Source: Rozella allomycis CSF55
Taxonomy: Eukaryota
Assembly: GCA_000442015.1 (NCBI GenBank)
Contig: KE561209.1
Location: 1 to 64,000, forward strand
Reading direction: 5' to 3'
DNA: 64,000 nucleotides
In this document: in pieces, positions 11,472 to 33,940 of the stretch
Layout: every line of letters begins with the position of its first letter
Position numbering within the stretch: the first letter of the stretch is position 1
Notes under the pieces: generated by a model
Databases searched by the model: none
Told to the model about the DNA's origin: nothing
What the model saw: only the letters and a program-made list of their open reading frames with translations
Program-made: the position numbers and the translations under genes

Positions 11472-12203
11472 TTATAGTTTATTGACATATTCATTGTCTA
11501 CAACATAGTCAATTCTATTCCATGAATTAGAATCATTTCCGTATTTGGCAAATGTTAATGCCATTATTCTAGCTCTAGCAACATGATGTATGTGAACTAG
11601 AGACTTCAGGTCCAATTCTTTAACTTTTTTTCCATCGATTGCCAAATCATCATTAATAAATTCCACACCAAGGCCACTTTTTTCACCTCTTTTAATTGTA
11701 ATTTTTTCAAATGTTTGGACTATATGTTCAAGGAGCTGATTTTTTTCAGGCGCTTCATCAACTAAAAATTTGGAGCGTAACAAATAGGTGAAAACAAAGC
11801 GCTCCATTTGTTTGATTCTCGAGACGTCTAATTTATCATCGTTTGTCGTTGAAGATTCTAAAGTTCTTGTTAGTACCAGTTTCATTAAGATTGGATCACA
11901 AGTTTTGTTAATTTTAGGCAAATAATCAACCTTATCGATACAGTACAATGACGCACCAATGTCATCCCAAATGTAGTCCATTGTCTTTAAATCCGACTTT
12001 GTTTTTAAATCGTGGCTATTTTTAAGTAGTCTAATTTCATATTCACTGAGATATCTATTGGCTCTTTCCATTATTTCATTATTTATTTGGATGCTCGATG
12101 GATTATTGAACCTTTGAAGAGTAAGATATTTAAAGTAAACCCTTTGTATTATATCTTCTTTTGTAATTTGTCTTAATGGCTTAAAAGCAAAATTGAAAAA
12201 CAT
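11472..12203 (-). CDS. Hypothetical protein (243 aa)
   Basis: Long ATG-initiated ORF with protein-like composition; no recognised motif. Confidence 0.6.
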   Translation of the reverse strand: MFFNFAFKPLRQITKEDIIQRVYFKYLTLQRFNNPSSIQINNEIMERANRYLSEYEIRLLKNSHDLKTKSDLKTMDYIWDDIGASLYCIDKVDYLPKINKTCDPILMKLVLTRTLESSTTNDDKLDVSRIKQMERFVFTYLLRSKFLVDEAPEKNQLLEHIVQTFEKITIKRGEKSGLGVEFINDDLAIDGKKVKELDLKSLVHIHHVARARIMALTFAKYGNDSNSWNRIDYVVDNEYVNKL

Positions 12204-12587: not shown

Positions 12588-15257
12588 CTATACTTTAAAT
12601 TCTATATTATCCAGTGTAAAAACATCTTGAAATATGGACTTACACAATAAGTGTTTGGAAGGATCCGTGTTCATGTATTTGTCTATTATATTTTGGAACC
12701 TAAGTGGTTGATCTAGCAATTTTGTAGCTCGCAAAACTTTTTTGATTAGATTTGAAATCACTTTCTTCGAAGTGGGGTCTACCAAATCAATGAGATTCTT
12801 TATAACAGAAAAGACTGCCAGTCTATTACAAGAAACTTGGGACATAATGTTATGTTCGAATTCTACAGGCTCGAGTGAAGTGAATAGGTCGAATAAAGTA
12901 CTCGTGTGTCTATTTTGTGGGCCTTGACTGACACACTTTAAGTTAGAGGAGTTTTCATTTGGAGCAACAGAACCAAATGTTATAGTCAAGGTAAGTCCAT
13001 TAGAATGTTCAGTGACGTAGTATGAGTATGGTTCGAATATTGATTTTTCTTTGACTATTCTAGACGCTACTTCTGCAGGATCTTCATTTCTAGAAATATC
13101 TGTAACAATAAAATCCACTAAATCCGGCTCATAGAAATCTTCATCTTCATTTAGCTTGATTTGAATTTCTCCATTCGAGTACTTTTCTTGTAGTGCGAAA
13201 TATTCATCTTGTATTACTTTCTGGGGTTTAATTTGGAGCCCACTCAAAGATTTTCCAGTAATCGATCGTTTGGGCCTTAGTTTTTTACGTTTTAATGTAG
13301 GAAAGATTATTTCTACTGTCTCTTCGCCTTTTAGTCGATCAGTTTCTTTGCGCTCGCTTTCAACTTTTTCAATCATATTCTGACTAGTTCTTTTCTTTTT
13401 ATTTTGCTTCTGTTTGGTTTTCGTTTTTGGTTTTTTGGTTTTATTCTTTGGTTCTTCTGGCACAATCAGAGTTGGTGAAGCTTGAAAATCATCTATGAGA
13501 GGAATCGAAACTTGAACGTCTTCAGCTTTGGTAATTTTTCTTGCTTTCTTTCTAGCCTTTTTCGCTTTCGACTTGGAAATTTTAGTATTCAATACTGTCA
13601 TGTCTTGAAATTCATCAGCTAATTCTTTCATTTCGATTTCTAGCGGCTTTAAATTATTTCTCTCTTTATTAATCTGCTCTACCCAATATTTAAATTCAGG
13701 GGTCAAATCTTTGACTATACTCATCACTGTTATTCCGTTCAACGATTCCATATCAAATGCATCAGGATTAATGGCGTAAATATCTTTGCAAAGTGTTAAA
13801 GACTTTCCAGATATGAGACAACTCAAAAGCAAATTTATCCCATTTGGTCTGCTTTTAAGAACCATTTCATATTCTACGTTTCGCGCGTTGTAAGCCCTGC
13901 GAAGACTATAATAAGTTAAATCAAACCCATAATAAATCGAGTAATCTAATAAACCATATCCAAACGAATTGTGTCCTAACACTGGTATTATATCAACATG
14001 AGCGAGTTCGTAGATTGTTTCAGGTTGTTTTAACAAGAAAAATTCTTCAACAATGTCAGTACCGCGATTATCCATTATTGTAAAATATGGTTTATAACGA
14101 TTCTTCTCACTGTGATTAGCTAGCAACTTTAATATCTCAATATTTTTTGACAGCACGGCGTAAAAGAAGGGAGTGCGCTCGAATAATGATACATATTCCA
14201 TTTCATATTTTTTGTGTTCAATAAAAAAATCAATCACATTCATCCTTTGAAGCAAAATTGCCAACTGCAGACCATTAAGATGGTCAAAATTCATTCCTTT
14301 GGGAATAAACTCATTATCAGCAAAATCCTCCTTTTTGAATATAAATCTTGGGTTATTTTCATAAATGACTGATAAAAGATCTACATCTTCTTTGACAATA
14401 GCCAATGATACCACTTTCTTAACAGAACAGTCATCTGGATACATAGCGTAGATTGAATTAAATTCTTTGTATGGTCTTAAATCAAACAAATAATCAGGAC
14501 TTTCAAGCTCGGGCTCAAATATCAATAGATTACTCTTTGTAAAAGTCGTAATCAAATGGTCTCTAACAACCTTGTTCTTTTCTCTTTGAATTTGTTGAGT
14601 GATTTTTAACGCAGTCTTACTTTTGTAGGTTTCGGGGTTGTAAAGTGGAGACTTTATCAGAGCTTCAATCACTTTCGCATGTCCCAACTTGATTGCATAG
14701 TCCATGCAATTATTACGAGACTCGTCAAGAAGTCTAAACACCCATTCATCGCTTATGTTTTGAGCAAGGTATTGCTTTTTGGCAATCTCGAGAAGATACG
14801 ATACCACGTCCACTCTATTGAATACACATGCCATGGACATGACATTCAAACCTTTTGAAGACACGCTGTATATCCATTTGTAATGGTTTTCAGTAATATG
14901 TTTTACTACTGCCAGTTTCCCAGTCATTGCGAAAAACATGTAGAGATTCACGATATCGTTAGAAAAGTATTTCTTGTCATCAACCGACATATGTTTTAGA
15001 CCATCGAAGATACTCTTAGGACTCTTCAAAGTCATACCAGCCAAAGTAGAAACGGAAAGAGATATCTCTGCACAATCTAGTGGGAAATCTTTAGATGAAG
15101 CCTTGTAGTGTAAAAGCGCTTGATAACAGTCCCGTGCATTGTTTCCTAGAGATGTAAACTTTTGTTCTTTCAACTTGAATCGTGGATCTAGATGAATATT
15201 CGCCCTTGCAGAACATAGGAACAGCAAAAGGCCAACCAGAAAAGAAAAAGGTAGCAT
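12588..15257 (-). CDS. Secreted ankyrin-repeat protein (889 aa), intronless
   Basis: Signal-peptide-like N-terminus MLPFSFLVGLLLFLCSARA. Ankyrin-like units: GLNVMSMACVFNRVDVVSYLL, NNCMDYAIKLGHAKVIEALI, RTPFFYAVLSKNIEILKLL. Lys-rich basic region in the C-terminal third. Confidence 0.8.
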   Translation of the reverse strand: MLPFSFLVGLLLFLCSARANIHLDPRFKLKEQKFTSLGNNARDCYQALLHYKASSKDFPLDCAEISLSVSTLAGMTLKSPKSIFDGLKHMSVDDKKYFSNDIVNLYMFFAMTGKLAVVKHITENHYKWIYSVSSKGLNVMSMACVFNRVDVVSYLLEIAKKQYLAQNISDEWVFRLLDESRNNCMDYAIKLGHAKVIEALIKSPLYNPETYKSKTALKITQQIQREKNKVVRDHLITTFTKSNLLIFEPELESPDYLFDLRPYKEFNSIYAMYPDDCSVKKVVSLAIVKEDVDLLSVIYENNPRFIFKKEDFADNEFIPKGMNFDHLNGLQLAILLQRMNVIDFFIEHKKYEMEYVSLFERTPFFYAVLSKNIEILKLLANHSEKNRYKPYFTIMDNRGTDIVEEFFLLKQPETIYELAHVDIIPVLGHNSFGYGLLDYSIYYGFDLTYYSLRRAYNARNVEYEMVLKSRPNGINLLLSCLISGKSLTLCKDIYAINPDAFDMESLNGITVMSIVKDLTPEFKYWVEQINKERNNLKPLEIEMKELADEFQDMTVLNTKISKSKAKKARKKARKITKAEDVQVSIPLIDDFQASPTLIVPEEPKNKTKKPKTKTKQKQNKKKRTSQNMIEKVESERKETDRLKGEETVEIIFPTLKRKKLRPKRSITGKSLSGLQIKPQKVIQDEYFALQEKYSNGEIQIKLNEDEDFYEPDLVDFIVTDISRNEDPAEVASRIVKEKSIFEPYSYYVTEHSNGLTLTITFGSVAPNENSSNLKCVSQGPQNRHTSTLFDLFTSLEPVEFEHNIMSQVSCNRLAVFSVIKNLIDLVDPTSKKVISNLIKKVLRATKLLDQPLRFQNIIDKYMNTDPSKHLLCKSIFQDVFTLDNIEFKV

Positions 15258-16880: not shown

Positions 16881-17295
16881 GGCTTTGCCTGTGGCTTGGA
16901 AATTGGTTTGATCGCAATCGTACGAAAGTTTGGTATAGACATAAGGTTTAGACCTCCCAATTGTATATTCAGTTATACATTTAAACCTAGAGAATATCTC
17001 ATAAATTTCAACGGTCATGGAAGATGAAAGAGTAGATGAATCTGTTTAAAGGGAAAAGAAAATAACTGGGATGTATACATAATACAAATGAAATTGAATA
17101 AATTCAAATTGATTTTCCAATTATCATAGCGTGTAAAATAAATTTAGTCACCCCAACGCACAGACCCAGAAGGGACTATATATAATTCATTGATTTAACC
17201 AGCTTCCATCATTCATGTGATTTTAATTATGGCGAATATTCTTTCACGAATTTCCGCTTATTACCAAAATTTCGGGAAAATTGACACGTGTAAGC

Positions 17296-18159
17296 ATGAG
17301 GACAACGAGTGTCATATGGATTTTCCTGTTTACAGTTGTCCTTTCAACGGTTCTAGAAGAGAGCAGAGAAAAATTACTTGCCGCACTAAATAAAGGGAAT
17401 GGTAGAAGAAAGGGAAAAGGAGAATCATCCCAACGTACAAAGGCGAGCGACTACAGTAATCAGAGAATCACATCCCCGCTTAATCCGAACGTCCAAATAG
17501 AACGAGTTCCGAAAAAGAAAAGAAGATTCCAAAAAGAAAAACCACTGCTTTACAAGATACTTCACAAATCCGCCAACTTGGATATGGCTTTGCGCAAAAG
17601 AGATCCGGTGGTAATAAGTTCTTTTTTGAAAAATGTAAAACTCCAAAAGGAACTCGTGCAATCTCGAAACATTTCAAGCATCATACTGTTCTTATTTACT
17701 TGCGTCAAAAATGATAGATTCCACAAAAACCTTTCGGTCGTTCATTGTGCCTCTATGATTGAAAGCCCGAGATTACCGTTTGCACGAATATATGAACTAA
17801 TTGGTTCATCTGAAAAATTGCATTCGGCATTTCAACTCTTACAAATGTCTCTTTTAGTGAGTCCAACAGAAAAGCCGAAAAAAATTGAGTTGATTGACAC
17901 TGAACTTCAAAATATAATTTTGGAAACACAAGAAGAACAGAAAAAGAGTTTAGAGTGGTCAGATATCGCATTAATTAGTATTTTTGCTGAAAAATACTAT
18001 TTATCCGTAAGCTCCAAGTATGTAACCAAGAATTTAATTCGCCCAAAAGAATTAACCGAAACGCAATTTAAAGATTTGTTGAAGAATAAATCATTCAGCA
18101 CATTTATCAAAATCTTAAAAAGAATAGGTAAAGTCAAGATTAAGAAAGGAACAAAATAA
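17296..18159 (+). CDS. Putative secreted protein, family member A1
   Basis: Intronless ORF with hydrophobic N-terminus MRTTSVIWIFLFTVVLS and basic patches. It is a clear paralogue of 18444-19301. Confidence 0.8.
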   Translation: MRTTSVIWIFLFTVVLSTVLEESREKLLAALNKGNGRRKGKGESSQRTKASDYSNQRITSPLNPNVQIERVPKKKRRFQKEKPLLYKILHKSANLDMALRKRDPVVISSFLKNVKLQKELVQSRNISSIILFLFTCVKNDRFHKNLSVVHCASMIESPRLPFARIYELIGSSEKLHSAFQLLQMSLLVSPTEKPKKIELIDTELQNIILETQEEQKKSLEWSDIALISIFAEKYYLSVSSKYVTKNLIRPKELTETQFKDLLKNKSFSTFIKILKRIGKVKIKKGTK

Positions 18160-18443
18160 ATTGCTAATCAATTATTTTACCCAATTGTTATACATTGCAA
18201 AGAATATTTCAACATACTTTTTTTCAAATTCTGGTCAAAAAAAGAAATGAATGAATAACTCAAGCTATTCAAAGACACGGGAGATAAAAGCGCATAACAA
18301 AGATAACTTGAAATCATTCTATTCTTGCTGCCTTTAGTCGGAAAAACTACAAAGAATTCAATCCAGATAGCACAACTAAAATTTCTTTATAAAATGGCAA
18401 AGGGCTTTTCCCAAATTTACAGAAAAAGGGAGCACGTGACAAC

Positions 18444-19301
18444 ATGAGGGCAACGAATGTCATATGGATTTTTCTATTTACAGTTGTTCTTTCAACAGTG
18501 CTAAAGGAAAGCAGGGAAAAGTTAATAGCCAAACTTAATCAGGAGGGAAATGCAAAACGAAGATCTATTCGTATTAAGCCTGCCCCGGTCTATAAGGAGA
18601 GAAGAATAACATCCCTGCTTAACCCCAATGTCCAAACAAAGCTGATTATGGAAAAGAGAAGGAAAAGTCGCTACGTAAAACCATTACTTTACAAAGTCCT
18701 TCAACCCTCAGTCAACTTAGATAAGGCCTTGCGCCAACGAAATGCAGAGGTATTGTCCTCTTTGATGAAAAATGTGCAAATGCAAATGGATCTTGTTAAA
18801 TCTCGCAATACTCGAAGCATACTGCTATTTCTGTTCACATGTATAAAAAACGATGGAATTCATGAGAATATCTCAACTGTTCGTTGTGTCTCTGTAATTG
18901 AAAATTCTCAGGTTCCATTTGCCCGTTTATATGAAATAATAGGACGCGGAAAGTCAAAGAAAATAAAGTCGGCATTTCATGTCTTGCAAACATCATTTGC
19001 GGGAAAAACAAGAGACAATTCTGAGTCAATTGAACTAATTGACTTGGAACTTCAAAACCAGATTCTGGGAAAACTAGGGAAGACGAAAAAGAGAGATCTA
19101 CAATGGCCAGATATTGCATTAATTAGCATTATTGCACAGCAATACCAATTGCCTTATAGCACGGAATATGTCAACAAGAAATTGATTCTCCCAAAAATAT
19201 TGTCCCGAGAGGATTTTGAAGAGTTATTATCAAAGCCCGCGTTTTCCAGTTTCGTAGAAACCTTAAAAACAATTGGTAAAGTAGAGATAGAAACAAAATA
19301 A
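18444..19301 (+). CDS. Putative secreted protein, family member A2 (tandem paralogue)
   Basis: MRATNVIWIFLFTVVLSTVLKESREKL aligns end to end with A1 (shared LNPNVQ, KPLLYK, NLD.ALR, LFLFTC.KN, W.DIALISI). Confidence 0.8.
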   Translation: MRATNVIWIFLFTVVLSTVLKESREKLIAKLNQEGNAKRRSIRIKPAPVYKERRITSLLNPNVQTKLIMEKRRKSRYVKPLLYKVLQPSVNLDKALRQRNAEVLSSLMKNVQMQMDLVKSRNTRSILLFLFTCIKNDGIHENISTVRCVSVIENSQVPFARLYEIIGRGKSKKIKSAFHVLQTSFAGKTRDNSESIELIDLELQNQILGKLGKTKKRDLQWPDIALISIIAQQYQLPYSTEYVNKKLILPKILSREDFEELLSKPAFSSFVETLKTIGKVEIETK

Positions 19302-19705
19302 AAACACTTCCTCATTATTCCTTTATCGAATTTTACTGAAAAATAACTTCGAATCCAATGTTAATAGACTATCGATATTCTATTTACAAACAAAGGAGAG
19401 GGGACGGTAAACAATGGGAAAAATTAAATCAAACTATCAAGGCATATGCCAAATCCAAATCTAGATCATTTAAAACATTATTAAAACCGATTTTAAAATC
19501 AAAACTCCAGGGACGTGTTCAGGTTATCAATAATAACTTTCCTTATGTTTTCGTATTTGTCTTATTATAATTATATACGGACTGCAATGAACGCTCTGAA
19601 GCAAAGAACTTGAATTAGACTATTACATATTTTCCCAATGTCTAAATTATAGATCCTCTGGAAAACGTGTCCCTTAGATGAGCCAGCCACCAAAAGCCTT
19701 TTTGT

Positions 19706-21262
19706 ATGAAGTCCGTAAAAGCGTTTCTTTGGGCTTATCTTTTATTGATAGAGATTTTTGTAGTATGTAGCAATCCTAGATTGGAGTTATATGAAAACTT
19801 TATACAGTCAAAGAAAGCCGAATCCTTGACCTTGAGGAAAAGGATTGTCTACCAGAACTATCAAAAACTAAGATTAAACCATTCGTTAAAAACTAAAAAC
19901 TTGCAAAATACATTGCTTTTAATAGGGGATCTGAATAAGCAAAGAGAATTGCTGCAAACCGGTAGTTTAAATGATATTATACTCTATTTTATTACGTGCA
20001 TAGAAAATCCACATTTTTCTGTAACTTTCAATATCGAAGTTTGTCAAGAGTTAATAGATGAAGGAGACATACACCTAGCTTTTCTATATCAACTTGCTCA
20101 TCGAGTTCCTCGTTTAAAATCATACACTGATCGATTTCTAGACATATTTTTTGAAAAGAAAAAATCTAAAGCGTTTAAGTTTGTTGATGATGAAATCCAA
20201 AGAGAAATATTGTCAGAAGATTTTAGAAAAATTAAAACTCTTGAATTGGAAGACATTCTATATTTAATAATGCATTCACAAGTGTACTCGCTACACAAAA
20301 GTTTTGAACTTCTTACATCTGTCTTGCGTAAAAAGGCCATATCTGAAGAAACTGTTACCCAATTGGTTCAAAATGCTGAGATTGAAGAGTTGGTGGGAAC
20401 TTTAATTCTATTCCGACCTGAATTTTTTCCTTTTGTTTTACGAAAAGCATTGGAATATAAAAAGTCTGCGGTTTTGGCTGAGATATTTTGTTTTCCACAC
20501 TATTCGGAAACTGATGTAATTTCTGTTATTGAGTCATCTTTACCAACCGATAGTAAAGTAATGATATTGAAAAACGTGAAGGAAACCGATATCCCACTTT
20601 CCAAATCTTTGAGAATATGTGCGGCAAAAGGTGAATATGAATTGCAAAATTTGATAATCTCGAATAATTTAAACCCCGAGACTTTATTTGTACTAAGTGT
20701 GGATAAAGAATTCTTGAAAAGCGTTATTAATTACGATCCATTCATCATAGAAAGTATCTTTGACGCCGCATTGAGCTTCGGAAACGAAATATTAGCTATT
20801 GAACTTTTAAATTATGCAAGTGCTGATGTTAAAGAAAAATTCATAGATATTACTGTTGATAAATGCAACCATCAAGTGTTGGAAAAATTGATTAATGATT
20901 ACATGTCCTTTCAGAGCAATTATGAGAAATTCAAAAAGATTGAAAAGAGAAATCAATGTATGTTGAAGTTTTATGTTCATTTGAAATGGAAAAAGTTAAA
21001 ACCTACCCAATCACTGTCCAATGCCATTATGGATACTTTAAGTTATGATATTGATGCAGCTGATCAAAAGACCGTTCTTGAAATTACTAGTACTTACCCT
21101 TTGGAAGAATATGAAGCAATTAAAATGTCAGAATTGATTCAAAAATTAGGGATACACGACATGGCCTTGCCTTGCAACGAAAATCATGATTCTGATACAG
21201 ATACAACAGAGAGCATCACTTTATTTGACTCTGACATTGAAATCATTGATAGTGATGATTGA
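19706..21262 (+). CDS. Putative secreted protein, family member B1 (518 aa)
   Basis: Intronless, with a signal-peptide-like start. It shares IILYFITCIENPHF, FKFVDDEIQ and ELVGTL..RPE.F with 29917-31374 and, more weakly, with A1/A2. Confidence 0.75.
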   Translation: MKSVKAFLWAYLLLIEIFVVCSNPRLELYENFIQSKKAESLTLRKRIVYQNYQKLRLNHSLKTKNLQNTLLLIGDLNKQRELLQTGSLNDIILYFITCIENPHFSVTFNIEVCQELIDEGDIHLAFLYQLAHRVPRLKSYTDRFLDIFFEKKKSKAFKFVDDEIQREILSEDFRKIKTLELEDILYLIMHSQVYSLHKSFELLTSVLRKKAISEETVTQLVQNAEIEELVGTLILFRPEFFPFVLRKALEYKKSAVLAEIFCFPHYSETDVISVIESSLPTDSKVMILKNVKETDIPLSKSLRICAAKGEYELQNLIISNNLNPETLFVLSVDKEFLKSVINYDPFIIESIFDAALSFGNEILAIELLNYASADVKEKFIDITVDKCNHQVLEKLINDYMSFQSNYEKFKKIEKRNQCMLKFYVHLKWKKLKPTQSLSNAIMDTLSYDIDAADQKTVLEITSTYPLEEYEAIKMSELIQKLGIHDMALPCNENHDSDTDTTESITLFDSDIEIIDSDD

Positions 21263-21312
21263 AAGCCATAAATTTAATAAATTTATTTCATTATAAAGAT
21301 CCCTTTATTTGT

Positions 21313-22707
21313 TTATTTACGTTTCTTGATTTGCGAAGAAGTATCGTCATCAGTGTCTTTTCTCTTTGCCGGTGTCTTCCCAGCCCTTATATCGTAAGAC
21401 TCTTTCATTTTCTGCATATTTATTTTGCTAACAATCTATATTAACCAACACTTACGATTACATCATGCTCTACTATCGGCTTAGGATAATCTTTTCCGAT
21501 AATGCAATTTGCTTTCCTCTGCACTTCCAATGGTGCCTTCCATGGTTCATAGATATATTTTTTTGGAAATTGGCAAAGTTGTGGCACATACTTTCGAACG
21601 AAATTCCCCTCAGGATCATATTTTTTGGGAAAAGCAATTGGACTATACACTCTAAAATATTGATGAAAGAAGGCTGAAGCGCTAAGCCAAAGCCAATTAC
21701 CAAAATTGAGAAAGTAATCTGCATCTAGCAACAGATACTCAAATATTTCTGCACCCCGTTCCCAACTAATATATAAATCCCCTCTAGTTAGGAAACAAGC
21801 GACAGAATGCCTAGCCAAGTGATGGATCCATCCTTCTTGTCTTAATTGGTTCATGATCGCGTCAATCCAAGGAAATCCCGTCGTGCCATCTCTCCAAGCT
21901 TCCAAGTGCTTGGATGCCTCTTCGTCGACATCATCTTTCTCTTTCAATCGCCAATTAGTTTGAAGACAAATCGGGTTTCCTTCCATTCTGTGAAAATTNN
22001 NNNNNNNNNNNNNNNNNNNNNNNNNNNNNNNNNNNNNNNNNNACCCGGCTGTGTAATAAAATTCACGCCAGAATAATTGCCCTTCCAAAGAAACTGGAGG
22101 TTTAGAGTGACTTTGATTACGATAAATATCCATCAAGCGCTGATAAAACAACCGAACCGAAAGGCAACCATATTTCACGTAAGGGCTCAATACAGTAGTG
22201 GAAGCAGGATCGAAAGCAGCAGGAGAAGTATTTGGTTTTTCAAAAGTTAAAACTTTTGTTTTGTCCAAAAAATATTTATCCAGCATTTGCAAGGCAACCG
22301 ATTCCCCTCCATGATGCGGGGATCGATATAGAGGTGTTTCAAATCCAAGCTCTTGTATTGCTGGAACGTCAAATGTTTTGTTTGGGCCAGCAAATTCAAT
22401 ACCTTCATTGCAATTCAATATTTTTTGTAGATCAAAGAATCCTGGCAATTTAGTGGGAGGAGGGATGGGAAAACCCGGCTTCCCTAATTTATTGACTACC
22501 TTTAAGAATCCTTGATAAGTCAGTGGCGCCACACCCCCATTCTTCTCGAGCACCTGGGTGGGTTCGTAAAGTACATGAGTTCCAAACGTACGAACATTAA
22601 TATCGGCTTCATTAAAGAAGTCTTCTAATTCTTTATCTCTCTTAATAGAATATGGATCATAGTCTCTTTCATATGAAACAGTCTTGACTGAAGGATAGTT
22701 GTCAAAN
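21313..22707 (-). CDS. (6-4) DNA photolyase/cryptochrome, central and C-terminal part
   Basis: Motifs [75 protein letters not shown] and YIYEPWKAP. There is a short intron near 21436-21461 and a basic C-terminal tail ending KKRK*. Truncated at the N at 22708. Confidence 0.92.
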
Positions 22708-22713
22708 TATTAG

Positions 22714-23760
22714 TTAAATTTTGTTCAACTCCTCAATAATAATAGATACATGCCTCAAATATTCCTCGTAAGACTTGGAATGTATGATAATGTCATCGAT
22801 GTAGACCTTGACAAAATCATATTTACTCAGAAACCTAGTCATCACATTTTGGAACTCAGCAGGAATGTTCTTAAAGCCGAAAGGAGCTCCAATACAGTTG
22901 TACTGCTTTCCATTCCATGTAAATGTTGTTTTGACTTGGTCTTCCTCTTTAACTCTGACATTTGGGAAATGGACTCTGAGTCCTTCGATGACAATTCCAA
23001 GCTTAGACATTGTTTCAAGTCCTAGGACGATATTAATGGGGATGCCATTATCATCGCCCATGTCGAGGACCTCGAACCGATGTTTGATCTTCTTTTCTCC
23101 GTGGCAGACATCTACTTCTTCCGTGATGCCTTTTCTTGGCGTAGTGGTGGATCCTTCAGCCAAGTGTAATACCCCTTTCACCGGATTGACCTTAATCGAA
23201 AAATCTTGAACCATGGCTGGAGAAATGAAGGAGTGTGTACTCATGGAGTCTATTCCCGCACGGGCATTAACCCCATTTACAGATATGGCTGTGTACAAAA
23301 ACTTGACAGGGTTCAAGTTTTTAACCATGTTGAATTGCATTGTTCCTGGTACGATAATCTCGTCTTCTTCCAGAAGTTCTTTAGGGAATTCTTCACGGAG
23401 ATCTATTCTCCTGTTATGGACATTGGATGAGGCTTCCTTATTCTTCTTTCTCTTCTCGCACACTTCATTGTGGCCTTTTTCGTAAGGTTGTGCACACTTA
23501 TCGCAGAGTTTTTTTGATGAAAACCTTTCTTGCCTCTTTTTTTTCCTCCGACTGCCCCGAGTTGTTTCCTGTTCTGCCCTGGCGAGCTCTACAGTCCTCC
23601 ATGTAGTGTCGCACTCTCAGATTGTTCTTATGGAATTCACAATAATAAGAAGTAGTCACTTTCTTCTTGGCTGGACTTTCAGGTGCTTCCTTTTGAGTCT
23701 CCACTCTTCTCTTTGAAGGAGATCTGCTAGCATAGGCAACCGACAGGTCGTTAGGAATTC
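22714..23760 (-). mobile_element. Ty3/Gypsy LTR retrotransposon remnant (gag, protease, partial RT), internally deleted
   Basis: Aspartic protease motif AGIDSMSTHSFIS and RT motifs PFGFKNIP and YIDDIIIHS. Protease is fused directly to mid-RT compared with the copy at 40-41.3 kb. Confidence 0.88.
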
Positions 23761-23769
23761 CGGCATCTA

Positions 23770-25773
23770 ATGAAGAAACTTTCGAGCTTTACAAGGAGTA
23801 TTCAAACCGTTTAGAAGTTGCTAATGGCACTCAAATGCCAATTATCGGTAACGGAAACATTCGCCTGGGAAATCTCAATTTACAAAACACCCTGCTGTGC
23901 CCACAAGCTACCCACAATTTAGTCTTTGTCCCACAACTAACCCGTGACGGATTCACCACATTCTTCACTGAAAACAAATGCCTCGTTCTGAAACTAACAC
24001 CACATCAAAACCAGACTCCGCTTTAGAACTGTGGGAGTCACGGGAACTAAATTTGACAACCATTCACGCCTTCAAACAGCCATGTTATATTCAAAAGCCA
24101 AAACAGAAACAAGACGACAAATTAAATGTCCGAGGCATCCCAGGCCGATTTCTCAACTACAGTATATCGCGTGCGGCATTTCGCATTTTGACGAAAGAAT
24201 TTCAAATCATTGAATCCAGGGATGTTAGATTCGTTAATGAGACAACACAAGATCACGAATTTTTTCTACCCCAGAAGCCAGACAGTGAATTCCTAGTGCA
24301 AGATGATGATCATGACCAAGTGCCTCAAGTTTCTCCAAAGAAGCCATCATTGTGTGACATTTCTGCTGGTAACATCATTGACACTCCACGTCGCCCGCAA
24401 GCATGCGTTTCAACTAATCAGCCCTTTCCAGAACTACCAGAAACCTTAACCCGATGAGCACAATACAAAAGCAATGAATTCCGAAATGAACAGTTTTTAT
24501 GAAAATAATGCTTTTTCAAAGTTCGAAGGAATCCCGGAAAAGGCCCCAATCGGTTCTAAATGGATTTTTACGTATAAGTACAACATTGACGGAAGTGTTC
24601 GATACAAAGCCAGGCTAGTCGCACGTGGATTTACTCAATGTGAAGGTGTGGATTTTAATGACACCTATGCACCAGTCTTAAGCCATCAATCTCTCAGAAT
24701 TGTACTCTCCATTGCTGCATCAAAAGACTTGGAATGTGATCAAAGTGATGTCAACACTGAGTTGTTAATACCAACTCTATCCCACAAAACTTACATGAAA
24801 CTTCCAGATGGAACAATTGTACGACTATGTAAATCTATCTACGGTCTCAAGCAAGGCTCTCACAAATGGTTCAAACATCTTAAAATTTTCCAACTGTCCA
24901 TTGGCTTAACCCAATCTAAACAGGATCCGTGTCTATTATATTCACTGACCACTGAATATACCTTCTATCTCGGCGTCTACGTTGATGATCTCTTGCTTAT
25001 TGGTGACCGAGGTATCGTCAATCAAATCAAAGAGAAACTACAATCAGCATTTCCCATAAAAGATATTTGTCCAGCAAAAACTTATCAAACAACACGCGCG
25101 ACCGGATTTTTCATATTGTGCCTCTCTGCTTGGTCGATTTCTTAGTTCGCCTGCTACCATTCACCTTCAGGCTGCGCGCCACGCCCTACGAAATGTAAAG
25201 GGCACTCAACAACATGAAATTCTTCGTGGAGGAGCACAGCTACAAATGGAAGCTTTCGCGGATGCCAGGCTACCGATGAAAACAACTGACACCCGCAACG
25301 CATTGAATTCATCTGAGCAACTGGCCATAAACACTCGAAGTCGATCAACCTCAGGGTTCATTATCAGGTTAGGTTTAGGCTGCATTGAATGGAGCTCAAA
25401 AACTCAGCATAAAATTAGTATAAGTTTTGTGTGAATCAGAATATCATGCTTTAGTAGAATGCACCAAATCAGTCATCTGGAACAATCGTCTTTAAATGAA
25501 TTAGAGATTAAACAGCAATGCCCAATCATATTTGAAGACAACCAGCCAGTCATCGACCTCATCAAAGGAAATGGACTATCATCCAGAAACAGACACATTC
25601 AAATGGAACATGACTTTCTTAACGATCTTTTACAAGCCCACGAAATTCAGATTCAGCATATCGGAACAAAGCTAGAGATAGCGGACTCTCTAACACAAAT
25701 CACCCAAGTCTGCCATTTGGCATGGTCTAGGAAGCTATTCAACTTGGTCCCGCATTCTCAGATTCAGGGGGGG
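23770..25773 (+). mobile_element. Ty1/Copia retrotransposon pol remnant (RT, RNase H), frameshifted
   Basis: Motifs IGSKWIF..K....RYKARLVARGFTQ.EGVDF.DTYAPV, KSIYGLKQ, YVDDLL, FADA, IFEDNQ and IADSLT. Polypurine tract AGGGGGGG ends at 25773. Confidence 0.92.
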
Positions 25774-26157
25774 TGAAAGACCAAACCTGAGAATTGAGGT
25801 CACGTGTCCAACCTATATAAATCACCCTTGTTAAATAAAAACCACTTCTTCATCTTACTTGTTTCTACATTGACTAGCATCAACTTCATTATCCATACCC
25901 TCGACTGCAATAGAATCAAAAACGTCTTAATCAACGACTCTAGCATCAACTGCATTATCCATATCCGCGACTGCAATAGAATCAAAAACTTCTTTATCAA
26001 CGACTGTTCTAAAATTAGCATTTTCTCTAGCCCCAATCACTCGGAAGTCTGATTTGCAATCTTCCGTGGACTCTTACGAGGCCTGAAAGTGTTTTTGTTA
26101 GCAAGTTACCTTTAATTTTTTTATCTAGCCCACGAAATTCTTGGCTATGCGGTTTCA
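25774..26157 (+). repeat. Probable 3' LTR of the Copia element, containing a 66-bp tandem duplication
   Basis: Begins TGAAA immediately after the PPT, with a candidate TTTCA end at 26153-26157. Contains TATAAA and a ~66-bp unit starting at 25875 and again at 25941. Confidence 0.5.
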
Positions 26158-26645
26158 AATCGCAGTCCATTTCCTGCAGGCACTCAAAGCGAAATGCTTC
26201 GTAATCGTCTTGTTAGTAAAAGGTTAAACTTTTTATACGACTGAATAAGTAATTTTTTTCTACTTGCGCGAATTTATCCGCGATAGCTTTATGCGTAGGT
26301 AACAAGCTAGGCGGTGACATTTTTTCGATATTTCTAAAAAGAGGATTCAAATTTAGTTCAAATTTCCTAATGTCGATTTTTCCGAAAGAAAGTTTAGGTA
26401 AAAATATTAATAGTAATACATTTATCAATATTTATTAACTTCCTGCGTACAAATTTCTTCCTGTTTTCTGTACTAGAAGGTCACCTTTTTCTTCAGTTCT
26501 TTGGGGTTTTAACTGTCAAGTGTATTACGTCCAAGATATTTCGCTTCGAAAGAGTGGTAATAAGGCCAATTAACGCATAAATGTGACAAATACTATAGGC
26601 GGTGCGGGAAAATGACAGATTGTACGGGAAAAATGTAATTCTTAT

Positions 26646-27402
26646 TGTCGCTCCATGCGCTTATAGTATCTTAATCCTCATAACTGATGTCGATTAAGAA
26701 TGGATTATCCTCTGTTCTATTTATTGATATCTTCTACTTGTCGAAACTCGCTTTTCGTTTATTGGAATACTGCTGACCTTTTTCATCTTTTTCTACTTGA
26801 GCGGTTAATGCAAACTCATTTTTGGATAGACCAACGCTTTCCAGGATGTCTAATTTTTTAAGAATCAGAGGCCTTTAAAGATATTTTCATGAAATTACCA
26901 AAATATATCATCCAGGGTGCCTTTTGCGAGTAAATAGTGAACATTGACAGAATCTTTTTGGCCTATTCTACGAGCTCTGTCTTCAGCTTGAACCAAAACC
27001 TATTTCATTATTATGTTGCAAATTTACACCGGGGTTCCAATACAATTCAGCAAACACTACAGTTGTGGCACTTGTCAAAGTTAAGCCAACGCTAGCAGCA
27101 GTTATGCTGAGAAGAGCAACCTTAATGTCTTCCTTCTTTTGAAATTTATTACATTTAGCAAACCTAGAATTTGTCGCTGTAGATCCATCAATCCTAATGT
27201 AATTTAATTATTAATTAAATAGTTTTATATGTTGCTCCTTTCAATAAATAGTATCTTTTCTATAATTAGTATCAGAATAGAGATCCGTCAGGATTAAGAG
27301 ATCCTTTAAAAGTTATGACTCCTCTCTTTGAAAATTATTCTAAGAAGCGATGAGCATTTCTGATGTGACAATTGAAGTGGGATGAGAATCCCTGGTACGA
27401 CA
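26646..27402 (+). mobile_element. LTR-like repeat (TGTCG...CGACA) enclosing the helicase fragment; further partial copies at 27545-28230
   Basis: The 5' ~40 bp (TGTCGCTCCATGC.CTTATAGTAT.TTAATCCTCATAA) and the 3' ~145 bp (TCAGAA.AGAGATCCGTCAGGATT...GAATCCCTGGTACGACA) both match the inverted copy at 62820-63071. Confidence 0.6.
26734..27205 (-). pseudogene. SMARCAL1/ZRANB3-like SNF2 helicase C-terminal fragment (two introns retained)
   Basis: YIRIDGST..SR...CNKFQ...IKVALLSITAASVGLTLTSATTVVFAELYWNPG | [34 protein letters not shown] | PLILKKL...* . No upstream ATPase lobe is present. Confidence 0.85.
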
Positions 27403-28454
27403 ATTGTCANCTTAATGTCTTCCTTCTTTTGAAATTTATTACATTTAGCAAACCTAGAATTTGTCGCTGTAGATCCATCAATCCTAATGTAATTTAATTA
27501 TTAATTAAATAGTTTTATATGTTGCTCCTTTCAATAAATAGTATCTTTTCTATAATTAGTATCAGAATAGAGATCCGTCAGGATTAAGAGATCCTTATGA
27601 GAATCCCACTATGAGATGTGGGATGAGAATCCCTGGTACGACAATAAGGATTAGTTTCTATGGTAACAGGATCGATTTCTTCTGTAAGCTTCCATGATGT
27701 TCTTTAGGTAATGAGTATCGCAGAATAAACATAATTAATTTCATTTCATGTTAACATTAGTATCATTTCTATAATTAGTATCAGAATAGAGATCCGTCAG
27801 AATTAAGAGATCATTTGAGAATTATGACTCCTCTCTTTGATAATTATTCTAAGAAGTGATGAGAATTCCTGATGTGACAATTGAAGTGGGATGAGAATCC
27901 CTGGTACGACAATTGTCACTTACAGTTCAGATCCACCGCAAATGGTTGTTATATTTGTATTAGTTGCTATTAAAGGTATCCAAAGACTCTCATGTTGGCC
28001 TTGATATCCGACCTTACGACAGGTGTCCCCCTGTGGGCCGTAGTCGGTGTTAAGGTAACATCGTTGAGATCCATCAAGAATGGTTGTAATATTCATGTTG
28101 ATGAATGTTAAAGGTNNNNNNNNNNNNNNNNNNNNNNNNNNNNNNNNNNNNNNNNNNNNNNNNNNNNNNGATGAGAATTCCTGATGTGACAATTGAAGTG
28201 GGATGAGAATCCCTGGTACGACAATTGTCACTTACATTTCAGATCCACCGCAAATGGTTGTTATATTTGTATTAGTTGCTATTAAAGGTATCCAAAGACT
28301 CTTATGTTGACTTTGATATTCGACCTTACTACAGGTGTGTACGACAGTTCGTGCTATAAATCGATTAACATTACTTTGTCATTTGTGGTACTGTGATATA
28401 TCATCTATTCTAAGATTGAAAAAAGTCAATATTTATTAATAATCTTAATGAGTT

Positions 28455-29002
28455 TTATTTATCGTGGAATGCTCTTAAGGACTTTCGCAATGAAAGAAGA
28501 GCATTTTGACTTTGTTGATGTGATTCTTCTTTGTTTGCAACAGGCTGAGAATCCAAGACAGAGTAATCAAGATGTTGTTCGGAAACAAATGGCGTGACTT
28601 GAACAGAAGGAATATCAGTGAAAGGGATTACACCGACGTTGTAAAGAGGAACTAAAGGAGTGACCATTAAGCAGCCTTTCTCGTTTTGATCGAATGAAAG
28701 ATTCTCAGAGTTTGAAAAGAAATGATTTTTTAAGTTTAGCAATAGCGACTGGAAAGAGTCTTCCTCGATATAGTCGATTTTTCTGTATAATCCGACAAAT
28801 TGAACAACCAGATAAAGACTTGCAAATGGCCCGAGATAGCGTCCATAATGGATTTGTGAAATATCGAAATCAGAAAGGTGGATGCTTTCAATAAGTTTTA
28901 GATTCTCCAAGATATTTTCTTTGGATTCCAAAGCGACTTTGAGAGCGAAATAATAAGCATTTTCAGCAAAAGAAGACACCAAGGCTGAGTATTGAGAGAA
29001 AG
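28455..29002 (-). CDS. Hypothetical protein, 3' fragment truncated at a gap
   Basis: Open frame of about 180 codons running up to the N at 29003; no recognised motif. Confidence 0.35.
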
Positions 29003-29461
29003 NCGCAGATTGGACTTGGTTGCTTTGATGCTTGAGATAAAGATTTTATTGAGTTACAACTTTACCCTTTACTAATGCTCCGGCCAAAGCGATCACAACG
29101 CTGACTTTGTATGAGCATGCTACAGACAATACAGCTTGCCGGGGACAGTTTGCTTGTCTCGCAGCTTCGTATAATTTATTATGGCTCGGCCATAACTAAT
29201 TAAAGAGGAAGATAAAGGCCATGATGAGCAACTGCGGAAAATCGGGTTTTTTGGTGCATGTAGTGACCAACTGCGGAAAATCGAAGTTTTTGACAAAAAA
29301 AGTTGTTCAAGAGGTGCACCGACGGCATTATAAATCCTACGTCAATATACAGAACGAAGCGTACTGTGACTATGTTTGGCTGAAACGTTCCAGGCGAAAC
29401 GAACACGAAAGGCAGCGAAAAAAAATCCTACCGCATTCAAACCAACTTCGGGGATTGAAAN

Positions 29462-29727
29462 ATTTTTAGGGTTGCCGCGAAACACAAATAATCTAGAACC
29501 GATTTTTTTCAAGTTAGAATCTAAATCTGTTAAACTCTCAAGCCTAAAATAAAATCCAAAAAATGAATGACGTCATACATGAACAACCAACGATTAACAG
29601 ATATACGATCAGACTTTGCATAATGGGGATCTATGATGAATATAGGAAGTAACTTTTCGCACTTAATCAAAAGCGCAGGATTGTCATGAAGTCTTTGGCC
29701 CTTTCGAAACCAGCATATAGCGTCCAT
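29462..29727 (-). CDS. (6-4) photolyase/cryptochrome, N-terminal exons (same gene as 21313-22707)
   Basis: MDAICWFRKGQRLHDNPALL...PIFIIDP...VNRWLF | LESLTDLDSNLKKIGSRLFVFRGNPK, ending at the N at 29461. Confidence 0.9.
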
Positions 29728-29916
29728 TATCCAAGCCACAATTGGATGTTCCATTCTTAATTTAGAAGCCACAATTGCATTTTGTTAATGATGTATTGCG
29801 GATTATCACTATCCAATTTGCTTTAGTTATTATTGTTTGTGAAAACTTTTTATCCACCAGACACCAGAGGATTGTTACGATCTATTTCAGGAATTTCTAA
29901 ATTCCAGCCACCCCGG

Positions 29917-31374
29917 ATGAAATATTTTTTGCACATTCTTATTATAGTTACCAAAATATGTTTCGTGATGTGCGCAAATACAAAGCAGACAAAATATCGC
30001 AAAATTAATGTCAAGTTCATCCAGCCTAATGGAAAGACTATTTCTTACACCAGATTGTCAAAGTTCAAACATCCCATTCCTTTGATAAAGAAAATGGCAA
30101 AGAAAAATTATAGACAATTAACACTTGATAATGCGCTAAGAACAAGAAATGCCGATGACGTCCTATTATTAAGGAAAGACAAGCAAAAGAACATTCAGTT
30201 TGCAAATCAAAGTGGTTTATTTGTCATTATATTATATGTTGTAAACTGGCTTGAAAATCCCAAATTCTTTGGTTCTGTTTCTTTATTCCTTGAACTATTA
30301 GAAAAGAGCGAATTCTCGTTTGATGTGGATCGCATTGTGCATTATTTGTGTCATTTTGAGCCATTGAAAGAATATTGTGCTAAATTATTTTCGTCCGTCT
30401 TTTCTAACAGAGCTATTGAAGGGACAGATGAGTTCAGATTTGTCAGTCAAGAAATTCAAGATTATATTTTTAAAATGCCGCATCTGGATATTCTGCCAAT
30501 GAATATGAAAGATTCTTTGTTTTTATATAAACTAAAACACAAATATGAAAAGAATTTTGATATATATCAAAATTACATTCTTGCAGTAGAATTCGACGAT
30601 AAAACTGTTATTTTTGACTCTGACTATGATGAGCTTGTTGGAACACTTTTGCAATTAAGACCTGAAAGATTCAATACCTTTTTCAATACTGCCCTTAAAG
30701 TTAGCGCTGTTGAAAAACTTAAACGTTGTTTTGAATGTAATGGCTTGTACGGAGAGGAACATATTATAACTNATGGATTGTACGGAGAGGAACACATTAT
30801 AACTATTCTAAATTCTTCTTTAACAAGTGATGAAAAATATTTCATTCTCTCTGGAATTGAGGGGTCAAGTGTTTCTTTAGAAAAGGCCATCGATCTCTGT
30901 ACAGCCCAGAATGAAATTAGAATCCGAAATAGCCTTTTTTCTAAAAACTTAAATAGCGGCACTTCATCTTTTCTGATTAGGAATACTGAATATCTAGAGA
31001 GTTTTGTAGATTTCGAGCCAAACTCTCAAGCGATTTTGCAGCAATTATATAAAACTTATGTTCACGTTAACATCCCTGTGGCTCAAAAGATTCTCAAGTA
31101 CATGGATCCTTTAGAGAAGAGTAAACTAATAGACATTACACTCGATTCATGCAATCTAGAGCTCCTAGAAGTTTTATTAGGAAAAAACTACTCAAGATTG
31201 CACGTAGAGCTGAAAAACAAAGAAAGATCTGAAAAGAAGCGCGAATGCCTCGGTAGATACTTTCGCCGACTGGCTGTTAACTTTAGTCTGCAAGATACAA
31301 GCGATCGATTACTCGAGTCTGTTCTGAAATCAACCGCCGAATACACTATTGAATTTTTCTCGTCCATATTGTAA
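29917..31374 (+). CDS. Putative secreted protein, family member B2
   Basis: Signal-like start MKYFLHILIIVTKICFVMCA. Blocks NYRQLTLDNALRTRN, IILYVVNWLENPKF, FRFVSQEIQ and ELVGTLLQLRPERF match B1. An 11-codon artefactual duplication surrounds the N at 30772. Confidence 0.75.
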   Translation: MKYFLHILIIVTKICFVMCANTKQTKYRKINVKFIQPNGKTISYTRLSKFKHPIPLIKKMAKKNYRQLTLDNALRTRNADDVLLLRKDKQKNIQFANQSGLFVIILYVVNWLENPKFFGSVSLFLELLEKSEFSFDVDRIVHYLCHFEPLKEYCAKLFSSVFSNRAIEGTDEFRFVSQEIQDYIFKMPHLDILPMNMKDSLFLYKLKHKYEKNFDIYQNYILAVEFDDKTVIFDSDYDELVGTLLQLRPERFNTFFNTALKVSAVEKLKRCFECNGLYGEEHIITXGLYGEEHIITILNSSLTSDEKYFILSGIEGSSVSLEKAIDLCTAQNEIRIRNSLFSKNLNSGTSSFLIRNTEYLESFVDFEPNSQAILQQLYKTYVHVNIPVAQKILKYMDPLEKSKLIDITLDSCNLELLEVLLGKNYSRLHVELKNKERSEKKRECLGRYFRRLAVNFSLQDTSDRLLESVLKSTAEYTIEFFSSIL

Positions 31375-31482: not shown

Positions 31483-33940
31483 ATGGAAATAAAGGTGAAA
31501 AAAGATATACCGCCTGATTTCATACCGATTGTTTCGAATGAATACAAGGTTAAAGTAACACCGCACAGATCTTTTGATTCCATGACCTGTATGTGCAGTT
31601 ACAAGCCTGGTACAAGTTGAATAACGAGTGTAATGCAGGTGATCCTATTGAGAAAGCGTGTGGAGAGTCCAGCGACTGTATGAACAGAATGCTGCTGTTT
31701 GAATGCCACCCTGATGACTGTCCGTGTGGCGATTCGTGTCAGAATCAGAGGTATTTATGTGTTGTGATTTGTAAAGGTTCCAGAAGCGGCAGTACCCCAA
31801 AGTTGAGGTGTTTAAAACAAGTGGAAAGGGCCACGGCATGAGGACGCTGGAAGATTTGTCACCGTAAGCTGGCGATTATATCTAAATAATTTATAGAAAC
31901 ACGTTTATAATGGAATACTGTGGGGAGGTGGTGGATGAGACGATGTTTATGCGCCGTTTGAGTGAATATTCGCAGCGGCATTTCTATTTCATGACTGTGG
32001 AAAAGGATCATGTAAGAATTTTGTGTTTGGAAATAAAGATTATTGATGCATCTAGAAAGGGAAATATTTCGAGGTTTATAAACCACTCGTGTGCACCTAA
32101 TTGTGCGACACAGAAATGGATTATCAATGGGATAACGAGAATTGGAATTTTCACGCTGAGGAAGATTCCAAAGGGGACTGAATTGACATTTGACTATAAA
32201 TTTGAATTTTATGGGTACGCATTGATTGTAGTGGTTATTTTAGGGAGCCTCAGAAGTGTCTTTGTGGAGAGCCGACATGCAAGGGTTATATTGGCAAAGC
32301 GAAGCAGATAGAGGAGAATTCGGACATAGAAGATGAGGATGATCAAGGGCCGGTTGAAAATAGGCCAAAGAAGAAGGAGTATATACCCCGGCCCATTGAT
32401 GTAGAAAAGGTGCAGCCACTTTTGGTTGAGATACTTCAAGCATCTAATGAAAGAAAGTTGTTAAAATATATAAAGAGATTTGAAGTAATTAAAGCAAGTT
32501 GGGTAAATGTAGGTGACAGATTCAGGGGAAGTATTTAGGTTGCTAGTGAAATCGCATGGGATAAAGATTATGGCAGGAATACTTGAAGAATATCCTGGTA
32601 GTTTAGATATAACGAGATGTGTGCTGAGAATCTTGGATAAAGTTAATCTTGGAACTCGTAATCCAATACAGGATGCAAAGTTGGATGAGATGGTGGGCAA
32701 CCTAAAGGAGCATTCTGATGCTATCGTGTCAATGTTATCAAAAAAGGTAATTAAAAGTGGTGGATGAAAATAGTTGGAGAATGAATGGTCAGAGCTTCCA
32801 GTTACGTATAGAATACCCAAGAGAAGAAAAGAGGATTGTAAAAAGGATAGAGTTAGTGAAGTTAAGCAACAAGAAGTGAGTAAGATTGGAGTGTCACCAA
32901 GTGAAGGAAGTGAGAGGGGATCGAATGGAGGATATAGAAGGCCATTTGAAAAGAGAAAGAGGGAAGAAAGGGAAGATTATGAAGGGAGAAGAGATTATGA
33001 TGTTAAAAGAGATTACGAAACAAAGAGAGGCTATGAAACAAAGAGCGATTACGAAGGGAAGAGAGACTTTGAAGGGAAAAGAGATTTTAACGCAAGGAGA
33101 GAATATGAAGGAAGATATGAAAGGGATTATGAAGGAAGGAATGAAAGAAGAGATTATGGGAGGCACAAAGTTGACAGAGACTATGAGAGGCACAAAGATG
33201 ACAGAGATTATGAAAGACACAAAGATGACAGAGATTATGAAAGAAGGAAATATGAAGGGAGAGATTACAACGATTATAGAGGGCGTAAAGATGAAAGAAA
33301 ATACAACGAAATGGAAAGAGGCAACGATAAAGAAAGCGAAAGATTCAAAGGAAGAGAAAGTTTTAACGGAAGCGAACGACTGAATGGGAAAGAAAGATTC
33401 AAAGATGAATATTCAAAAGAAAAAAATAAAAGAAATTTTGATCTAAAAAGAGATTTCGATTCTCGGAAAGATTCTGAAGACATTAACAAATTTATAAGGG
33501 ACATTAAAGATGGAAAAGAAAACGATCTATCAGATCTACAAGAAAAAGATGATCTAGATGGAAAAAAAGATCTGCAAGAAAAAAAAGATGAAAAAATATT
33601 TTCGGGATTCGCAGAAGATGATATAATGAGAGTTGTTAAAGAAGCAACAATCTCAAGAAAAGAAGAAAAATCTTCATTTAAAGAACAATTGTTCAATTTT
33701 GTTATAAAATATTTAAGTAAATTTAAAGATAAATTTGAAAAAGAAGAATTTAAGAAAATGGCCAGAAAAGTAATCTCTTTTCACCCTTGAAATTAGTTGT
33801 GTCACACATTAATAGATAAAGAAAAAAGATACAATGAAGAAAAAGGTATAACAGATCCTCCCACACTAACAGACGCAAAGAAACATAAAATCAAAGAATA
33901 CATCAAATCTTACTTGACACGCATTCAAAAAATAGATTAA
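31483..33940 (+). CDS. SET2: Histone H3K36 methyltransferase Set2 (AWS-SET-postSET...SRI), multi-exon
   Basis: AWS domain CGESSDCMNR...ECHPDDCPCGDSCQNQ; SET domain EYCGEV, IDASRKGNISRFINHSCAPN, ELTFDY; post-SET CLCGEPTCKGYIG; SRI-like C-terminus (VIKYLSKF..EEFKKMARK..HTLIDKE..KIKEYIK). Start codon uncertain. Confidence 0.9.

Follow-up and report, generated by a model that had tools for sequence, protein, structure and literature searches.

Among described systems, those closest to the locus reported here are the clade-specific protein families of microsporidia such as Nematocida, whose exposure to the host was shown by proteomics (PMC5423893), the microsporidian protein EnP1, whose nuclear localization signal (NLS) and secretion have been tested with a deletion and with an assay in yeast (PMC11348272), and the secreted ankyrin effectors of plasmodiophorids, for example PbANK1, which are proposed to bind host proteins (PMC12503489). 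Rozella allomycis, a parasite growing within a water mould, is described as inducing septa in its host and recruiting host mitochondria (PMC6317583, PMC10953367), and a review suggests that it manipulates the host via protein-protein interaction proteins (PMC6690862). No named or described secreted family of Rozella appears among the literature matches listed, which comprise titles and abstract openings of at most 20 papers per search. Here we describe four related genes, A1, A2, B1 and B2, in the first 64,000 nucleotides of contig KE561209.1 of R. allomycis CSF55 (forward strand; the window hereafter). In the reading we favour, to which we give an even chance, they form a small family confined to Rozella, whose members are secreted, helical and non-enzymatic, act by binding and are exposed to the Allomyces host.

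Four genes of one family

The four open reading frames (ORFs) are on the plus strand, and our calls agree with the coordinates given by an earlier reading made from the DNA alone (the sequence-only reading). A1 (17296-18159, 287 aa) and its tandem paralogue A2 (18444-19301, 285 aa) are short and very basic, both with an isoelectric point (pI) of 10.1. B1 (19706-21262, 518 aa, pI 5.2) and B2 (29917-31374, 485 aa as assembled) are the long members. Each gene starts at the first ATG that follows a stop in its frame, and no in-frame ATG lies further upstream. The genes had been singled out as intronless, and each is indeed a single ORF; this is not special, as the genes for Cse1 (936 aa) and an ABC protein (620 aa) are likewise single ORFs. 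No further member was found in the window by tblastn with all four proteins.

To measure their relationship we trimmed the first 25 residues and used BLASTP together with Smith-Waterman alignment, the latter compared with 300 shuffles. A1 and A2 are 54% identical, and B1 and B2 are 27% identical across 510 columns (E 6e-41). Between the two types, A1 and B1 share 25% identity (E 6e-12, z 15.7, reached by 0 of 300 shuffles), while A2/B1 (z 15.3) and A2/B2 (z 9.2) both score above all 300 shuffles; the only weak pair is A1/B2 (z 3.5, 2 of 300 shuffles). HHalign relates the A profile to the B profile with a probability of 97% (E 7e-11, 176 columns). The proposed kinship of the short and the long type is thus borne out by significant alignment, and on these alignments the four proteins are one family. 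The core motifs that the sequence-only reading had picked out sit in aligned columns of the four-protein alignment. All members have a signal-like start, a variable linker and a core of about 190 residues, to which the B type adds at least 230 residues. In A1 the signal-peptide-like segment (residues 1-17/18) and a basic linker precede the core (about 84-274); in B1 the signal-peptide-like segment (1-21/22) and the core (about 43-233) are followed by a predicted alpha-solenoid up to about residue 462 and an acidic C-terminal tail.

Purifying selection and motifs near the starts

A1 and A2 differ with a nonsynonymous rate (dN) of 0.32 and a synonymous rate (dS) of 1.57, giving a dN/dS of 0.205 (Nei-Gojobori; dS near saturation), and the ratio ranges from 0.11 to 0.31 across five sub-regions. 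By this measure they are old duplicates under purifying selection, and the earlier description of a fast-diverging family does not hold in the sense of positive selection. The comparison of B1 with its 87% identical copy in a separate record points the opposite way. The two differ by 62 substitutions, 16 of them in residues 116-159, with a basic-to-acidic swap at 151-156, against differences of about 1% in the comparison genes (5 of 761 residues in a neighbouring ankyrin gene, 1 of 93 in an A1 fragment). The copy would be either a fifth paralogue or a highly divergent allele. Strain CSF55 is given as triploid in PMC6784888 and PMC9457484 and as diploid in PMC10845963.

Short motifs recur just upstream of the family genes. 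CACGTG is present exactly 11 nt 5′ of the ATG of both A1 (17285-17290) and A2 (18433-18438). The motif CCAGCCACC lies 23 nt before the ATG of B1 (19683-19691), 13 nt before that of B2 (29904-29912) and 30 nt before the start of the Set2-like gene that follows B2 (31424), all on the plus strand. Its three copies in the window compare with 0.13 expected, a post hoc figure for a motif spotted by eye; in a comparison that is also post hoc, about 20,000 draws of random 40-nt pairs gave 171 with a 9-mer in common. These motifs support real transcription units, and taken together with the A1/A2 dN/dS of 0.205 they show that the genes are maintained. Runs of CCC are also found at most 45 nt from other starts in the window (upstream of 15257, 17018, 53613 and 1627). 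A CCC-like motif is described upstream of microsporidian start codons (PMC2803860), of which both the Rozella CCC runs and CCAGCCACC are reminiscent.

It could be argued that the family is an artefact, its ORFs being spurious, left over from transposons or duplicated in assembly. The scaffold is full of single-N joins with near-duplicate flanks, full-length A1, A2 and B2 are not among predicted proteins, and B2 itself crosses a join (30740-30804), where a single N at 30772 is flanked by 32-nt near-copies. The near-copies have two differences, both synonymous, and B1 is gapped there in the alignment; because the N lies between such near-copies, the resulting 11-residue duplication in B2 is probably an assembly artefact in which two haplotypes were joined. 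For the family as a whole we regard this explanation as largely refuted and very improbable. The ORFs run to 285-518 codons with a GC content of 32-37% and a third-position GC resembling that of adjacent genes, the A pair combines a dN/dS of 0.2 with a dS of 1.6, no similarity to retroelements was found, and the copy of B1 is intact in its separate record. The window GC is in keeping with the 34.5% listed for R. allomycis (PMC5701793).

Signal-peptide-like N-termini and conserved cysteines

Signal peptides were called heuristically, from hydropathy and small residues at positions -3/-1. All four proteins have their best 12-residue hydropathy (2.6-2.7) within the first 21 residues, and 19-residue values of 1.8-2.0. 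They could be cleaved at 17-22, where small residues occupy -3/-1. Six of the 18 ORFs of at least 200 aa in the window reach a hydropathy of 2.4, namely the four family members, the ankyrin gene and a ZIP transporter. Internal 19-residue windows are all at or below 1.32 in the four proteins. Within the limits of this heuristic, the hydrophobic, signal-peptide-like N-termini first reported for the family are seen in all of them.

A1 (Cys136/Cys151) and A2 (Cys133/Cys148) have two cysteines each, which align with Cys98 and Cys113 of B1 at the same spacing. This CX14C pair is found in four of the five family sequences, and both cysteines are lost together in B2. B1 and B2 share four further cysteines, so that 4 of 5 aligned mature B1 cysteines are identical compared with about 27% overall identity. 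Inside the cysteine loop a sequon is aligned in A1 (N145) and A2 (N142) and is absent from B1 and B2. The conserved cysteines and the aligned sequon fit a passage through the endoplasmic reticulum (ER).

An uncleaved signal anchor or an organelle signal would give such N-termini another meaning, as the proteins would then be fast-evolved scaffolds kept at the ER, plasma membrane or mitochondrion of the parasite. We think this unlikely. The h-regions are short by both hydropathy measures and are followed by the -3/-1 small-residue sites, the paired conservation of the cysteines suggests an oxidising compartment, and the lack of any homologue found in other eukaryotes would be unusual for housekeeping scaffolds.

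More weight has to be given to the possibility that the proteins are secreted for the parasite's own use, in the wall of cysts or resting spores, as a zoospore adhesive, in the appressorium or infection tube, or in the lumen of the food vacuole, and have no action on proteins of the host at all. Features such as the conserved cysteines and the aligned sequon typically occur in extracellular proteins, and purifying selection and small family size would suit a structural role. Rozella is described as forming cysts, appressoria and walled spores and as phagocytosing host cytoplasm (PMC6317583). Moreover, EnP1 belongs to the spore wall and also acts as an effector in the nucleus, and the two roles can therefore not be told apart by these features (PMC11348272). 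On the other hand, no Pfam family was matched at cut-off, hence no chitin-binding, lectin or hydrolase domain is recognised, and the four proteins contain neither Ser/Thr/Pro-rich or Cys-rich repeats nor a C-terminal hydrophobic anchor. Alpha-solenoids, predicted here for the B type, usually bind proteins. We therefore consider own use a possible explanation, roughly half as probable as a family exposed to the host.

Basic patches and the question of nuclear import

The sequence-only reading had ascribed NLS-like patches to the whole family. Basic segments do exist in all four proteins. A classical NLS pattern is found only in the A type: PKKKRR in A1 (residues 72-77, 17509-17526), a classical monopartite pattern, and KRRK in A2 (residues 71-74, 18654-18665), which is aligned with it. 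Even these do not go beyond chance in such basic proteins, as an equal number of [KR]4 matches was reached in 8% (A1) and 21% (A2) of 1000 shuffles. After the signal peptide, none of the [KR]4, pat7 and bipartite patterns is found in B1, its 87% copy or B2. The internal basic patch of B1, KKKSK, is an acidic EEQES in the copy, and in the alignment LRKR falls where the core begins and not at the A patch. NLS-like patches throughout the family are thus not supported.

In its strong form the earlier proposal was that all four are NLS-bearing effectors which enter host nuclei and diverge under host-driven selection. It gains something from the A1 and A2 patches, which are aligned within an otherwise poorly conserved linker of proteins with a pI of 10.1, and from the fact that effectors with a signal peptide plus an NLS are known in microsporidia (PMC5423893, PMC11348272). 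The B members without any such pattern, the acidic replacement in the copy, the shuffle frequencies of the A patches and the low dN/dS throughout all speak against it, and we judge it to be quite improbable.

A helical core and a solenoid tail

That the core holds no recognised domain was also found here: Pfam, NCBIfam, PHROGs and PDB sequence searches of the family proteins gave nothing at cut-off. The core is predicted to be mostly helical, in a model with a predicted local distance difference test (pLDDT) of 60.5; in the B1 model pLDDT is 37-53 over most of the core region. No specific fold was matched to the core in structure comparison. Crinkler (CRN) effectors were considered and rejected. 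That family is defined by an N-terminal header domain; our proteins match no Pfam family at cut-off, and their models are nearly all helical after the signal peptide, without a ubiquitin-like header.

The tail of the B type is confidently modelled as an alpha-solenoid. In B1 it spans 20405-21091 (pLDDT mostly 70-93), consists of short, possibly degenerate ankyrin-like helix pairs and contains the four cysteines common to B2. The top structural matches of the B1 model are all helical repeat scaffolds, and the tail matches HEAT/TOG/ARM folds no less well than ankyrin. Hidden Markov models (HMMs) of ankyrin (Pfam Ank, Ank_2, Ank_3 and Ank_4) gave no match to A1, A2, B1 or B2 at E up to 1, nor to the B1 copy and four tail fragments at E up to 10 (a limit at which the HMMER filters drop most matches above 0.1), while the same scan scored the neighbouring ankyrin gene at 1.1e-11. 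A profile of eight repeats from that ankyrin protein ranks first B1 350, B2 403, A1 93 and A2 90. The two B sites are the helices that had been named as ankyrin-like and the two A sites are the first core motif, but the best score was reached in 12-72 of 200 shuffles. HHalign detected no internal repeats. The nearest look-alikes of the B type are degenerate ankyrin arrays of giant viruses and bacteria in BFVD and the ESM Atlas, including a Shigella OspC-domain cluster. They occupy 18 of 50 BFVD rows and have language-model scores of 0.89-0.91. For the B type the ESM Atlas score is 0.90-0.91 with 144-153 shared features, where true members typically have 170. The B proteins differ from these arrays in that they give no row at E 1e-3, share 132-153 features (below 170) and have no sequence alignment to them.

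Distribution of the family

When a profile of the four proteins was searched against 1.84 billion representatives, two proteins were found at E up to 0.001. One is the hypothetical protein ROZALSC1DRAFT_30006 [Rozella allomycis CSF55], the 87% identical copy of B1, and the other an unnamed 93-residue record corresponding to A1 residues 184-276 with one difference. With A2 as query none of 1,469 candidates was confirmed, and neither A2 nor A1 was retrieved; with B1, two of 7,999 candidates were found, one being B1 itself. In bacterial and archaeal genomes 0 of 40 pattern matches were confirmed. No homologue outside Rozella was found in the protein representatives and the bacterial and archaeal genomes, metagenome and viral contig collections not being covered. 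The earlier claim of lineage specificity agrees with these searches, which matched no widespread housekeeping family. The same reading had assumed an intracellular parasite as the source, which agrees with R. allomycis, an obligate one; the relatives of both B1 and the ankyrin gene are Rozella records. Because full-length A1, A2 and B2 were not retrieved among predicted proteins, they are probably unannotated in predicted protein sets.

Surroundings of the locus

The gene order is ankyrin gene (-), N-myristoyltransferase (-), A1, A2 and B1 (+), photolyase (-), B2 (+) and Set2-like gene (+). The N-myristoyltransferase gene was recognised by Pfam NMT and the Set2-like gene by its SET and SRI domains. 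The ankyrin gene (12588-15257, minus strand, 889 aa) lies 2 kb upstream of A1 and has no detectable homology to the four-gene family. It is a single ORF with a signal-peptide-like start, true ankyrin repeats (Pfam Ank_2, E 1.1e-11) and a lysine-rich NLS-like region, and corresponds at 756 of 761 residues to ROZALSC1DRAFT_28160, its sole database relative. The protein contains six K[KR]x[KR] matches, a number reached by 1.1% of shuffles, and one bipartite pattern. Judged by these patterns, it is a better candidate for an effector with signal peptide plus NLS than the four-gene family.

Between B1 and B2 lies a gene of the photolyase/cryptochrome family, which in this intracellular parasite would serve in repair or sensing that depends on light. 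Its 3′ part (21441-22706, minus strand) matches Pfam FAD_binding_7 (E 1.6e-67) and DNA_photolyase from model position 89, and its 5′ exons (29462-29727, minus strand), which are divergent from B2 with 190 bp between the ATGs, match DNA_photolyase positions 1-48 and 52-77. Since the model begins at 29727-29462 and its remainder resumes from 22706, where position 89 is the seventh residue and about five residues are unaccounted for, the N-bounded block of 6,755 bp in between (22707-29461) sits inside the photolyase gene. The block contains RVT_1 and a protease (-), RVT_2 (+), a part-duplicated helicase exon and repeats. This mixture of retroelements on opposite strands, a helicase exon and repeats resembles contigs put into a gap more than a single transposon insertion. 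The block thus probably consists of mis-scaffolded contigs outside the family, and the photolyase is probably an intact gene broken by scaffolding. Without the block the four family genes span 7,324 bp, which strengthens the earlier suggestion of a compact cluster around the photolyase.

Within the block, 22714-25800 carries the aspartyl protease with RVT_1 (-), of which more copies occur at about 40.2-41.4 kb, and a retroviral SH3-like domain with RVT_2 (+); the two retroelement fragments are unrelated to each other. A helicase C-terminal exon at 26983-27497 (-) is part-duplicated across an N at 27410, and a repeat family at 27.2-28.3 kb recurs inverted at 62.7-63.1 kb. A 196-codon open frame at 28455-29045 (-) runs through an N at 29003 and matches no Pfam family at cut-off. 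Dense single-N joins with adjacent repeats that are 75-100% identical also occur at 7.1-9.9 kb and 34.4-42.4 kb, which probably represent uncollapsed repeats or haplotypes. Downstream of B2, a purine-rich, repetitive charged stretch with overlapping frames (32774-33790, +) lies within the tail part of the Set2-like gene, whose SRI domain comes last. Orphan ORF candidates are found at 704-1627, 2241-2684, 3157-3579, 11472-12203 and 62038-62646 (-) and at 4579-5331 (+). They encode 140-307 aa, match no Pfam family at cut-off, lack a hydrophobic N-terminus as far as measured, and may be genes or exons.

Discussion

A family of helical binding proteins exposed to the host could work as follows. 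The N-terminal hydrophobic segment would direct the proteins into the ER and be cleaved near residue 17-22, the core cysteine pair would form a disulfide, and A1 and A2 would be N-glycosylated within that loop. An unwalled thallus could release the proteins into the surrounding host-derived compartment, and there, or in the host cytoplasm, core and solenoid may attach to proteins or membranes of the host. Binding surfaces would differ among the paralogues and between B1 and its 87% copy. The very basic A1 and A2 may reach the host nucleus, B1 and B2 probably not. Local tandem duplication followed by loss or gain of the solenoid would have given the two lengths.

Several observations weigh against this proposal. 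We know of no translocation route out of a host-membrane compartment. The parasite is described as sitting in just such a compartment, enclosed by host membrane that has invaginated (PMC6317583). The disulfide and glycan features predicted here would suit a cytosolic effector no better, and perhaps less well, than a protein that is extracellular or part of the wall. Charged residues make the h-regions of the long members atypical, Glu in B1 and His and Lys in B2. A1 and A2 show no positive selection. Because the core model is of low confidence, a hidden enzyme fold may still be present. The five distinct sequences, four in the window plus the copy of B1, fall below the ten members by which large families of microsporidia are defined. 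Finally, with so few genomes of rozellids available (PMC5701793), restriction to the lineage counts for little.

A far-reaching version joins all these elements. The locus would hold an effector family that is the first for Rozella and that annotation has largely overlooked, with a core that is a new helical domain derived from a decayed ankyrin array. A1 and A2 would be imported into Allomyces nuclei and B1 and B2 would scaffold host cytoplasmic proteins, together driving septation and organelle recruitment. A triploid strain would maintain hyper-divergent alleles of B1, 13% apart, and the four genes together with the ankyrin gene would form a small, co-regulated effector island amid housekeeping genes. 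We consider this rather improbable. A family exposed to the host, in the simpler form given above, would mean that the strategy of clade-specific secreted families, known from microsporidia, reaches to the deepest branch of their lineage and to a parasite that is a fungus within a fungus. Candidates for such secreted families are scarce in Rozella, and the locus offers five that can be cloned, three of them apparently absent from protein databases. The analysis also exposed the likely scaffolding error that splits the photolyase. The surprise is limited, since comparable systems are well known in microsporidia, apicomplexans and plasmodiophorids.

The clade-specific host-exposed families of Nematocida and other microsporidia resemble the Rozella family in that they come from a sister lineage of intracellular parasites and combine a signal peptide (in Rozella a heuristic call), paralogues, restriction to a clade and the lack of a known domain (PMC5423893). 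No sequence relationship to them was found; the five Rozella sequences compare with at least ten members by definition there, and host exposure, for which those families have proteomic evidence, is proposed for the Rozella proteins by analogy. EnP1 shares with A1 and A2 only, and not with the patternless B1 and B2, a signal peptide, which in the Rozella proteins is a heuristic call, and a basic NLS-like patch (PMC11348272). No homology to it was found in any search, and the Rozella patches are pattern matches, whereas those of EnP1 were tested experimentally. The plasmodiophorid effectors of the PbANK1 type likewise come from an unwalled intracellular parasite and are, as is predicted for the B type, secreted helical-repeat proteins (PMC12503489). 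In contrast to them, the repeats of the Rozella family are missed by the Pfam ankyrin models, its core is not a recognised repeat array, and A1 and A2 have no solenoid. The neighbouring 889-aa gene has exactly the plasmodiophorid secreted-ankyrin architecture and is the closer parallel (PMC12503489). The link of the four-gene family to each of these groups would thus be a likeness in kind only, and the locus appears to encode a family which is itself new and for the most part unannotated, of a kind that is well known, and for which an effector role is plausible.

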